From contig CAKZNT010000015.1 of assembly GCA_937132065.1 (NCBI GenBank), positions 2,094 through 66,093 of the forward strand: a stretch of 64,000 bases of DNA, in the 5' to 3' direction. The DNA is from an uncultured Loktanella sp. Its GTDB lineage: Bacteria > Pseudomonadota > Alphaproteobacteria > Rhodobacterales > Rhodobacteraceae. The position numbers and the translations under genes are program-made. Below the pieces are notes generated by a model, which was not told the origin of the DNA, ran no database searches, and worked only from the letters and a program-made list of their open reading frames with translations. Below are positions 14,193-24,722 of this stretch, piece by piece (position 1 is the first letter of the stretch; each line of letters begins with the position of its first letter).

Positions 14193-14681
14193 ATGACACA
14201 ACCACTTGTCGGCATCATTATGGGCAGCCAATCGGATTGGCCCACCATGCGCGAAGCCGCAGAAATTCTGGATGCGCTCGCCATTCCTTACGAGACAAAA
14301 ATTGTGTCCGCCCACCGGACGCCTGACCGGCTTTGGTCTTATGGCAAAACGGCGGTGGATCGCGGGCTGCAAGTGATTATCGCGGGTGCTGGCGGCGCGG
14401 CGCACCTTCCGGGCATGATGGCCTCAAAGACGCGGGTTCCCGTTGTTGGCGTGCCTGTGCAAACCAAGGCGCTCTCGGGGGTCGATAGCCTGTATTCGAT
14501 CCTCCAGATGCCAAAAGGGTTCCCTGTCGCGACAATGGCCATCGGGGCGGCGGGGGCTGCGAATGCGGGACTTATGGCCGCGGGTATCCTTGCGTTGCAA
14601 GACCCGAGCCTTGCGACACGCCTCGACACATGGCGCAGCGATCTTTCCGCCTCAATTCCAGACGAGCCTGTAGATGAATAA
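14193..14681 (+). CDS. purE: N5-CAIR mutase
   Basis: [25 protein letters not shown]. Confidence 0.97.
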
Positions 14682-15726
14682 TGTAAAAACCATCGGTATT
14701 CTGGGCGGCGGGCAACTGGGGCGGATGCTCTCGGTTGCGGCGTCACGATTGGGACTTAAAACCCATATTTTCGAACCCTCAGCCAACCCGCCCGCAGCCC
14801 ACGTCGCAGATGCGGTGACAACCGCATCCTACGCAGATGAGGCTGCACTACAGGCGTTTGCGCAGTCGGTTGACGTGATCACCTACGAGTTCGAGAACAT
14901 CCCGACATCCGCGCTTGATTTACTCGAAGCCATCAAGCCGATCCACCCGCCGCGCGGCGCATTGGCCACATCCCAAGACCGCTTGGTTGAAAAGAAATTC
15001 TTACAAGACCTCGGCCTGCAAACCGCGCCCTTCGCTGATGTGCAAAACGCGGCTGACCTGAGCAAAGCCATTGCCACGATCGGCACGCCCGCGATCCTCA
15101 AGACGCGCACGATGGGCTATGATGGCAAGGGGCAATCACGGATCATGTCGCCCGACGATGCGGCCTCTGCGCTCGCTGATATGGCTGGCGCTTCTGCGAT
15201 CCTTGAAGGGTTCGTCACCTTTAGCCACGAGGTGTCGGTGATCGGCGCGCGGGACGCTGAAGGCGCAGTCGCCTGCTATGATCCGGGTGAAAATGTGCAT
15301 GTTGACGGTATCTTGCGGACGACCACAGTGCCTGCAAAACTGACGCCAAGCCAGCGGACTGACGCGGTGCTTATCGCCGCGCGCATCCTGAACGCGCTTG
15401 ATTATGTGGGCGTGATGGGGCTTGAATTATTCGTGACGCCGCAAGGGCTTATCGTTAACGAGATTGCGCCGCGCGTGCATAACTCGGGGCACTGGACCCA
15501 GAACGGCTGCACGATCGACCAGTTCGAGCAGCACATCCGCGCCGTTGCAGGCTGGCCGCTCGGGGACGGGGCGCGCCATAGCGATGTCGTGATGGAAAAT
15601 CTGATCGGTGACGATATGGATAAGCTCCCAGCGCTCGCAAAAACCAGCGCGGCCCTCCATATTTATGGCAAGGATGATGTGAAAGCGGGCCGCAAAATGG
15701 GCCACGTCAATCACGTCAAATCATAG
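14674..15726 (+). CDS. purK: N5-CAIR synthetase
   Basis: [41 protein letters not shown]. Confidence 0.96.
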
Positions 15727-16570: not shown

Positions 16571-17017
16571 ATGAAACGCCCCATTCGGATCGCCACGCGC
16601 GCGATCATCCTACATGACAACAAACTCTTGCTTGTGAACGCCTGGAAAGGGCGCAGTGATCTTTGGTGCGCGCCGGGTGGCGGGGCAGAACCGCACAGCA
16701 GTCTTCCCGACAATCTCAAGCGCGAGATCATGGAGGAAACAGGGCTAAGCGTTGATGTCGGCGAGGTCTGTCTGGTCAATGAATTCCACGACCCTAAGGG
16801 CAGCTTTCATCAGGTCGATGTCTATTTTCACTGCACGATTACGGCGGGCACGTTAAGCGAAACATGGGTTGATCCAGAAGGGGTCGTCACGCACCGAAAA
16901 TGGGTGACAGAGGCCGAACTTGGGCGGCTGCGTGCGAAACCCGATAGCCTTGCAGGGGCCGCTTGGGGGGGAAGTCAGGCGATCAAATACGACCCGCTGG
17001 AGCCCATTTTACGTTAG
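16571..17017 (+). CDS. NUDIX hydrolase
   Basis: PGGG..E......KREIMEETG Nudix box. Confidence 0.88.
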
Positions 17018-17831
17018 AGAGTGCGATGCCGCCGATGACCAGCGCGCCCGCAATCACAAGGCGTGCGGACAATGGCTCGCCCAAGAACAGCACGCCCGCA
17101 ATGACGGCGATGACGGGCACACTAAGCTGCGCCACCGCTGCGACGGTTGTGGCGAGCTGGGGCAAAACACGATACCAGATCGCATAGCCGATGCCCGATG
17201 AAAGCGACCCTGCGACAATGGCAGATATGACGCCGCCTTGGGCGAACTCTCCGTCAGTGCCCGCCAAAAGCGCCAGTGCGACAATTGGCAAGCATAGGAT
17301 GAAATTGCCCGCCGTGGCCCGTAAGGGGTCTCGCGCCCCCTGCCCCAAAATGGTGTATGCCGCCCAGCCGATTGTCGCGACGATCATCGACACCGTGCCA
17401 AAGAACGGGACAGAAAACGCTTGGGTCGGCCACAGCAAGACGACCAAGCCGACAATAGCAAAGATCGCACCGATCCAGCGCATCAGCGGAATGGACTGGC
17501 CCCGCCAGACCGCCCAGCCAAACATGATGACCTGAAGGACACCAAAGAGGATCAAGGCGCCAAGCCCCGCACCAAGCGAGAGATAGGCCCATGAGAACCC
17601 AAGCATATAGATCGCGAGCGCAAGCGCACCGCGCCAGCGGGATGTGATGTCGGTCAGGGGGGAGTTACGGCGCGCGGCGACCAACAAGGCAAGGGTCAAG
17701 GCTCCCGCGGCAACACGGATCACCGCAAAGGCGACCGGATCCATTGCATAATGTGCGACACCAACGCGGGTCAGAACCGAATTGGCGGCAAAGGCCATCA
17801 TGGCCAAGGCAACAAGGATAAACAATTTCAT
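16983..17831 (-). CDS. DMT/EamA transporter
   Basis: About 10 hydrophobic segments in two EamA repeats; GYAIWY, QLSVPVIA. Confidence 0.88.
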   Translation of the reverse strand: MKLFILVALAMMAFAANSVLTRVGVAHYAMDPVAFAVIRVAAGALTLALLVAARRNSPLTDITSRWRGALALAIYMLGFSWAYLSLGAGLGALILFGVLQVIMFGWAVWRGQSIPLMRWIGAIFAIVGLVVLLWPTQAFSVPFFGTVSMIVATIGWAAYTILGQGARDPLRATAGNFILCLPIVALALLAGTDGEFAQGGVISAIVAGSLSSGIGYAIWYRVLPQLATTVAAVAQLSVPVIAVIAGVLFLGEPLSARLVIAGALVIGGIALSNVKWAPAGRI

Positions 17832-17868
17832 CGGGTTGGCTCGGCTCTCTGTTAGATCGCGCAACGAC

Positions 17869-17890
17869 GTAGGATGGGTTTTAACCCATC
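17869..17890 (+). repeat. GTAG-family REP hairpin GTAG-GATGGG-TTTTAA-CCCATC
   Basis: Exact reverse complement of 18394-18415; overlaps the GNAT stop codon. Confidence 0.8.
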
Positions 17891-18374
17891 ACATATCGCG
17901 GAAAGCGGAAGGGTAGACGATAGTTTGCACAGGCGCGCCCGTGACGCCAGACACCATCGTGTGAGATCGCGGGTATGGGCTGGTCAGCGTTGCAGCACTT
18001 GCAGTCGAAAATCCGGCTTTCTCGTAGAACGCGGGATTACCAACCACGACAATCGGGCTTTGGGTCAGACGGGACCACTCGGTCAACATACCCATCATAC
18101 GCTTGCCGTAGCCGCGGCGTTGCAGGTCGGGCGCGATCGCAACTGGGGCAAGACAAAGCCAGCCCTTTGGCTTTGTAAGATACGACAGGGCGTAATATCC
18201 GACGATACGGCCATCCCAACCGAGCACCTGCTCGCCTGCGATCACCTTGGACTTGCGCAGAGCCGCGACCAGCTTGGCCTCGGCGGGGGTGTCAAAGGCT
18301 GCGTGCAACAAGGCCTCGACCTCTGCCTCGTCCGCGCGCTTCATGTCGCGTTGAAAATCGGGCGTGATAAGCAT
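17889..18374 (-). CDS. GNAT N-acetyltransferase (YhbS-like)
   Basis: LAPVAIAPDLQRRGYG acetyl-CoA motif A, VVGNPAFYEKAGF; start moved to MLITP. Confidence 0.88.
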   Translation of the reverse strand: MLITPDFQRDMKRADEAEVEALLHAAFDTPAEAKLVAALRKSKVIAGEQVLGWDGRIVGYYALSYLTKPKGWLCLAPVAIAPDLQRRGYGKRMMGMLTEWSRLTQSPIVVVGNPAFYEKAGFSTASAATLTSPYPRSHTMVSGVTGAPVQTIVYPSAFRDM

Positions 18375-18393
18375 TGATGCGCCTTTCAGGAAT

Positions 18394-18415
18394 GATGGGT
18401 TAAAACCCATCCTAC
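18394..18415 (-). repeat. GTAG-family REP hairpin, inverted copy
   Basis: GATGGGTTAAAACCCATCCTAC, 20 nt upstream of the GNAT start. Confidence 0.8.
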
Positions 18416-18446
18416 GCAGTTGCGCCCGTTCAACAAGCGGCGAAGC

Positions 18447-18476
18447 AAAAAGGGCGGCCCCGCAATGGGACCGCCC
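18447..18476 (-). terminator. groEL intrinsic terminator
   Basis: Minus strand GGGCGGTCCC-attgc-GGGGCCGCCC-TTTTT. Confidence 0.75.
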
Positions 18477-18567
18477 TCGTTTTTGATCGACATTTTCGGC
18501 TCTCGGCATTTCCTAGGGAAAGGCCTGCCGTCTTGTCAAAATCGTTTGGGCAAGCCCAAGCCGGTTT

Positions 18568-20229
<1,662 letters not shown>

Positions 20230-24678: not shown

Positions 24679-24722
24679 GATGGGTCAAGACCCATCCTAC
24701 GTAGGATGCGTTTTAACGCATC
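24679..24722. repeat. Back-to-back REP doublet sharing a CCTAC|GTAGG junction
   Basis: GATGGG-TCAAGA-CCCATC-CTAC followed by GTAG-GATGCG-TTTTAA-CGCATC. Confidence 0.8.

Follow-up and report, generated by a model that had tools for sequence, protein, structure and literature searches.

Within the window (the whole 64,000-nucleotide stretch of DNA analysed here), a small gene for a GNAT N-acetyltransferase lies between groEL and an EamA/DMT transporter gene, all three on the same strand, and is bracketed by two short hairpins (Table 1). The downstream hairpin, at the left in window coordinates, is the exact 22-mer GTAGGATGGGTTTTAACCCATC, and the upstream one is its exact reverse complement, so that the GTAG tetramers occupy the outer ends of the arrangement. 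Judged by 100 dinucleotide-preserving shuffles, no such inverted 22-mer pair is expected. Between the two copies, GNAT is the sole ORF with family support and is accompanied by its weak RBS. The stretch that separates the hairpins measures 503 bp, and the whole REP-GNAT-REP unit 547 bp. The left hairpin shares 2 nt (17889-17890) with the TGA stop codon of GNAT. On the GNAT mRNA it reads UGAUGGGUUAAAACCCAUCCUAC and begins within that stop codon, which is both the typical position and the major orientation of the repeat family described below. The right hairpin lies away from any stop codon, a position atypical for the family. In all these points the preliminary description of the locus, which had reported an exact inverted 22-bp pair with outward GTAGs, enclosing only the GNAT ORF and its RBS and with the left copy on the stop codon, is confirmed. 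In the genome to which the window belongs (its own assembly of 2.94 Mb in 92 contigs, labelled G000 in comparisons), the inverted repeat can be followed over 32 nt, 30 of them matching (GCGCAAC..C precedes GTAG); this extension is unconserved in other species.

Table 1. Features of the GNAT locus and a family doublet elsewhere in the window (window coordinates).
Feature	Position	Strand	Remarks
EamA/DMT transporter gene	16983..17831	-	Pfam PF00892; downstream co-directional neighbour of GNAT
Left REP hairpin, GTAG + 7-8 bp stem	17869..17890	+	exact match
GNAT N-acetyltransferase, 162 aa	17889..18377 (ATG 18377, TGA 17889-17891)	-	Pfam PF00583/PF13508 (Acetyltransf_1/7)
Right REP hairpin	18394..18415	-	between groEL terminator and GNAT RBS; ends 16 nt before ATG
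groEL intrinsic terminator, 12-bp GC-rich stem + T run	18450..18478	-	distinct from REP
groEL	18568..20217	-	upstream co-directional neighbour of GNAT
Back-to-back family doublet, GTAGs inward	24679..24722		after cytochrome oxidase gene

The locus itself is ordinary. When both hairpins were examined as intrinsic terminators, neither was found to carry a T run, and a scan of the locus calls the groEL terminator only. The Rfam search matched no family; two sub-threshold chance matches both fall in the terminator region. We also considered the upstream hairpin as the source of a sigma-70 -10 box (TAGGAT) for GNAT and set this aside as speculative, as the scan returned no promoter-like site there. 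The space downstream of groEL is variable among relatives, which differ in the extra genes found between groEL and GNAT. These include an alternative-oxidase-like gene in one congener (G022), a NAD-binding dehydrogenase-like gene in three (G012, G029 and G030) and other genes in G034 and G015.

The two hairpins belong to a dispersed family. The assembly holds 14 exact 22-mers and about 32 copies at up to two mismatches, nearly all of them singletons. A conserved GTAG stands 5' of a short hairpin in the form GTAGGA, followed by the stem arms GATGGGT/ACCCATC, and compensatory stem variants keep the pairing intact (GGGTC..GACCC, GATGCG..CGCATC, GATGGT..ACCAATC). According to a heuristic gene call, a stop codon lies within 27 nt of about 26 of the 32 copies. 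At most of these stop-adjacent copies the mRNA reads stop-GAUGGGUUAAAACCCAUCCUAC, and several copies provide the stop themselves, either as TGA from T+GATGGG or as TAA in the loop. The family is multi-copy, extragenic and mainly ORF-downstream, as is characteristic of REPs. A 10-nt extension (GCGCAACTGC) was considered as part of the element and rejected; it is a family-wide tendency, yet only 55% conserved at orthologous sites. Among 61 congeneric genomes, which were used for family counts and for RAYT homologues and carry G-labels where named individually, 13 hold 30-70 copies of the family. A database search finds the exact 22-mer almost exclusively in Yoonia/Loktanella records, and we know of no earlier description of this hairpin family in Yoonia/Loktanella. 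Exact 22-mers also turn up in contigs labelled as Moraxellaceae and Rhodospirillales MAGs, which are probably mis-binned Yoonia-like contigs.

True doublets are rare, with just 2-3 among the roughly 32 copies. The doublet listed in Table 1 includes a copy whose stem is the compensatory GATGCG/CGCATC variant, and this GATGCG copy has a counterpart at the equivalent place in a congener (G034:C59:22077). Elsewhere in the window, a family-like hairpin (GTAGGATGCGGTTGTCACCGCATC, 14809-14832 on the minus strand) with the usual 5' flank of the family falls within the purK ORF (14674-15726) and is translated there as ADAVTTASY, which makes it a possible in-frame REP within a gene.

The preliminary description had assigned the GTAG-plus-hairpin architecture to RAYT-associated REPs and had suggested searching the genome for a RAYT that this REP flanks. 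The assignment proved correct, and such a gene exists. In G000, a RAYT-family gene on contig C24 (C24:4772-5278) has the family 22-mer 51 nt upstream of its start and carries this upstream hairpin only. In nine congeners (G034, G015, G006, G025, G081, G021, G026, G062 and G065) the C24-type gene is flanked on both sides, with hairpins 51 nt upstream of the start and 1 nt after the stop and the GTAGs facing inward. The C24-type gene together with its flanking hairpins is a REPtron, and the family is part of a genuine REP/RAYT system. A six-frame search with Pfam PF01797 (Y1_Tnp) found no match in G000 or in any hairpin-rich congener, which turned out to be a false negative. The idea of an orphan REP family without a RAYT was overturned by homologues retrieved with queries from G070 and G003. 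Weak Y1_Tnp matches in these two genomes are RAYTs flanked by related GTAG hairpins (motifs LPDHLHAV, GIWQRRFWEH and NPVKHGLV..DWPFSS), and as queries they retrieve two homologues in G000 (C24:4772-5242 and C85:15298-15822) as well as homologues in 57 of the 61 congeners. With NCBIfam NF047646 ('REP-associated tyrosine transposase', cut-off 80 bits), the C24 protein scores 159 bits and the C85 protein 172 bits, against Pfam scores of 0-13 bits for the same two proteins. Over these RAYTs as a whole, NF047646 gives 159-188 bits and the six-frame PF01797 search misses all. A practical lesson is that the Pfam Y1_Tnp model is false-negative for RAYTs that NCBIfam NF047646 finds.

The catalytic state of the two proteins can be read against the structure of E. 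coli TnpA-REP (RayT/YafM, PDB 4ER8), whose active site is made up of Y115, H59-M60-H61, N119, H123 and E161 (PMC3479197). Both proteins align with it over their full length, with E=6e-37 for the C24 protein. The C85 protein keeps HUH, Y115, N119 and H123. The C24 protein, in an ungapped alignment, has T-L-H for H-M-H (H59 replaced by T, H61 kept), Leu for Y115, Ala for N119 and Leu for H123. The losses extend to all orthologues and to related genera: Tyr is absent in all C24-type orthologues (Y115 replaced by L or V), the first His is absent in most and five are without both. Hence the C24-type protein does not have the residues of an active HUH-Y1 RAYT, all orthologues being without Tyr and most metal ligands. 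Even so, the gene has stayed intact throughout, and dN/dS values of 0.06-0.13 show that it is under purifying selection even though the encoded protein is, as predicted from the alignment, catalytically degenerate. It is the sole RAYT homologue in seven congeners (G034, G015, G006, G025, G064, G065 and G071), whose hairpins number 44-68. The hairpin-poor genomes G022, G023, G017 and G020 still keep the inactive RAYT, so its function cannot depend on a large hairpin set alone. The degenerate lineage also occurs with related GTAAGGTGGGTCTTGACCCAC hairpins in other genera of the family, and canonical H-U-H/Y-N-H RAYTs with other hairpin families coexist beside it. The C85 paralogue, with its intact catalytic residues, belongs with a different hairpin family of five copies (GTAGGGCGGGGTTCACCCCGCC-type; three on C77 and two in C85); its ORF holds an in-frame 87-nt outward-GTAG doublet of this other hairpin at 15563-15649.

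Set against known GTAG REP families and REPtrons (Nunvar 2010; PMC3479197; PMC3733652), the family is similar in its 5' GTAG followed by a short hairpin and in its tens of extragenic copies. As in those families, the copies are mostly found just downstream of ORFs, sometimes supply the stop codon and occur as singletons and as outward or inward dimers, and the hairpins also stand on both sides of a RAYT-family gene. It differs in its perfect, bulge-free stem, in its low copy number (about 30-70) with mostly singletons, in positions that are largely orthologous across deeply diverged species and in a flanked RAYT without the catalytic Tyr and three metal ligands.

We then asked how the hairpins and GNAT came to lie together. 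GNAT orthologues were found in 17 of 36 congeners in a first sample and in 6 further genomes. In all 23, EamA follows GNAT directly and on the same strand, groEL lies upstream in most, and the orthologues share 54-73% identity. In 12 of the 23, the locus has no hairpin, and GNAT and EamA abut or overlap. Since GNAT is syntenic with EamA also in these 12 hairpin-less congeners, the gene is older than the hairpins. Both hairpins occupy the same two positions in seven family-rich species (G000, G034, G015, G025, G081, G064 and G071). The left copy has exact or one-mismatch orthologues in six of the relatives among these and in G006, and the right copy is matched in G034, G015, G025, G081 and G064 and, with a compensatory stem change, in G071. 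A co-varying variant pair is found in G017. G006 has the left hairpin only, its right side being rearranged, and the GNAT hairpins are decayed in G023 and G020 and reduced to a remnant in G022. In a maximum-likelihood tree of EamA (a single protein, 276 columns), all 12 hairpin-bearing genomes fall into one clade with support of 100/99. The confinement of the hairpin pair to one clade of 12 Yoonia species shows that it arose once and has been passed on vertically since.

The preliminary description had proposed that the 547-bp unit could be a REPIN-like, non-autonomous element which owes its cargo to capture or movement through RAYT action on the inverted REPs, and these observations bear on that proposal. 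The exact inverted 22-mers (30/32 in the extended repeat), the outward GTAGs and the single enclosed ORF would fit such an element, RAYT homologues are present in G000, and according to Di Nocera et al. (PMC3733652) the two REPs of an outward-GTAG ('HH') dimer may have DNA between them. However, a mobile cassette would be recognised by presence/absence polymorphism at its boundaries or by its occurrence at different loci, and REP-GNAT-REP displays neither. It is found once per genome and at the same locus in 23/23, with no second copy, and comparison of the groEL-DMT interval across relatives, which had been suggested as a check, revealed no clean presence/absence at the REP boundaries but a gene that predates the hairpins. 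GNAT-less genomes hold no empty site with a REP doublet at this locus. Synteny of GNAT in relatives that lack the REPs is the very result by which the preliminary description had said its proposal would fall. The single phylogenetic origin of the pair, the missing nucleophile of the cognate RAYT and the inward GTAGs of the REPtron, opposite to those of the GNAT pair, likewise argue against mobilisation. The pair does not resemble a REPIN in the established sense either. A REPIN is a short doublet, its two REPs tens of bp apart, which replicates as one unit and is found in many near-identical copies (Bertels & Rainey 2011, PMC3116915). The system here has in common with REPINs the two inverted REPs and the vertical inheritance with a single-copy RAYT, whereas the GNAT pair is single-copy, its 503-bp spacer contains an older, resident gene and its halves lie in different intergenic spacers. 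We consider a mobile or REPIN-like origin of the unit highly improbable. Judged from these genome comparisons, GNAT is shown to be a long-term resident and the hairpins not to be the ends of a transposable unit.

A second gene is bracketed in the same way. An ABC-F ATPase gene on contig C90 (12714-14222) lies between two family hairpins (C90:12503-14234) in the same outward geometry as GNAT, and in G034 the same two hairpins are only 74 bp apart, with ABC-F absent between them. Taken by itself, this would favour a REP-bounded insertion, and we examined ABC-F as a second such case. But 18 of 24 genomes have ABC-F next to the same neighbours, which indicates that it is ancestral in the genus and was merely lost in G034, and the candidate was rejected. 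Throughout the genus, ABC-F is preceded by a conserved 18-codon leader ORF (MLSTRITRRLQHGPTHAL) and then a hairpin (C90:12578-12660); the leader resembles a translational attenuator leader.

How often hairpins of this family would enclose a gene by chance was estimated from random placements of 30 occupied intergenic spacers: about 25-27% of the trials enclose one gene or more, and about 3% enclose two or more. The observed number is two (GNAT and ABC-F) against an expectation of about 0.3 (P about 0.03), which hints that bracketing is perhaps more than incidental. The preliminary description had reasoned that an abundant 22-mer would make the flanking of GNAT a chance expectation. The 22-mer does recur in the genome, as the copy counts above show.

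Chance enclosure would suffice if the hairpins were neutral relics, that is, two independent REP insertions around a small gene, left by a decaying REP/RAYT system and under no selection. Apart from the frequency with which chance brackets at least one gene, this explanation can draw on the catalytically degenerate RAYT, on the decayed copies in G023, G020, G022 and at some G000 sites, and on the fact that nearly all copies are singletons, which are treated as remnants in the REPIN literature (PMC3337134). Against it stands the age of the copies and how little they have changed. About 16 of 30 G034 copies examined share their intergenic spot with a G000 copy; at others, G000 has either a decayed copy or another hairpin, or lacks the element cleanly. 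About 40% of G034 sites are without an intact copy in G000, which points to some turnover by gain or loss. At 15 orthologous sites, 320 of 330 hairpin nt (97%) are identical between G000 and G034, while their flanks (40-50 nt, much of it coding) are 55-64% identical. Synonymous sites are saturated, with pS of 0.77-0.86 in the RAYT gene among G000, G034 and G015. Neutral 22-mers would not have stayed 97% identical over a divergence that has saturated synonymous sites. In addition, both hairpins at GNAT are retained in seven species, altered at most by a compensatory change. Locus-specific variants are conserved across the genus, such as the GATGCG stem after the RAYT gene and the private TCTTGA loop of the hairpin after the dinB stop, which is found in both major clades even where the family is almost gone. 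Such private variants at the same locus in different species also argue against homogenisation by gene conversion from a master copy, which we considered and rejected. The hairpins thus appear, from their pattern of conservation, to be fixed, selected elements, and we regard an origin as neutral relics as very unlikely.

The pair might instead act as a unit. On a read-through or GNAT transcript, the inverted copies could form an RNA duplex of about 33 bp around the ORF, serving as an RNase III site or a translational lock, or could allow DNA inversion of the segment. Both the predicted MFE and the predicted centroid folds of positions 17840-18440 (minus strand) do pair the two copies in such a duplex (z = -5.5), the copies are kept together in seven species, and genes are bracketed above expectation. 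However, any inverted repeat would yield such a duplex as a matter of course, and either hairpin copy also folds locally by itself. Complementarity beyond the 22 nt is specific to G000, and G006 retains the left copy only. Inversion of the GNAT segment was not seen in any of the 23 genomes, in which its orientation relative to EamA is constant. A joint function of the two copies is therefore unlikely.

We find the observations best explained, with a probability of roughly 80%, by two singleton GTAG-REPs that flank a resident GNAT gene, have been inherited vertically and are now selected cis-elements. The comparisons show that GNAT already stood directly upstream of EamA before the hairpins arrived. 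In the ancestor of the 12-species clade, one REP came to lie at the stop codon of GNAT and a second one upstream, past the groEL terminator and ahead of the RBS. Both have since been passed on vertically and nearly unchanged while synonymous sites became saturated. The hairpin family has its REPtron, in which the flanked RAYT has lost its catalytic Tyr and most metal ligands. We propose that the hairpins are now fixed cis-elements that selection, and not transposition, maintains. The hairpin at the stop codon probably acts on the mRNA, where it may form a 3'-end barrier or slow translation termination, and it sets GNAT apart from EamA. The upstream hairpin probably shields the RBS of GNAT from groESL read-through.

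REPs in E. coli reportedly stabilise mRNA 3' ends or modulate translation near the stop codon. There, too, co-directional gene arrays have a stable hairpin that directly follows or overlaps the upstream gene's stop codon. The hairpins described here are shorter (7-8 bp), every position is conserved, beyond what pairing alone would require, and their function is deduced from sequence. Because every hairpin position is conserved, GTAG and loop included, sequence-specific recognition is suggested, and conservation of all 22 nt would be best accounted for by specific binding, with the inactive RAYT-derived protein as the leading candidate. A further-reaching reading is that the Roseobacteraceae contain a RAYT lineage without nucleophile and most metal ligands, under strong purifying selection and flanked by GTAG hairpins of its own, whose binding keeps the hairpins in place as position-conserved cis-elements at the 3' ends of genes and on either side of GNAT, so that REP and RAYT would have been fully converted to a host function, for example post-transcriptional or DNA-level regulation. 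On the present sequence comparisons we hold this tentatively, as a possible but rather doubtful extension.

For the interpretation of similar loci, a gene enclosed by identical inverted REPs is not necessarily part of a mobile unit; synteny across relatives decides. What benefit a host derives from vertically inherited REPIN/RAYT systems is an open question, on which a degenerate yet conserved RAYT and a set of frozen hairpins bear. A binding-only, host-beneficial role of the RAYT would be directly testable in this culturable genus.
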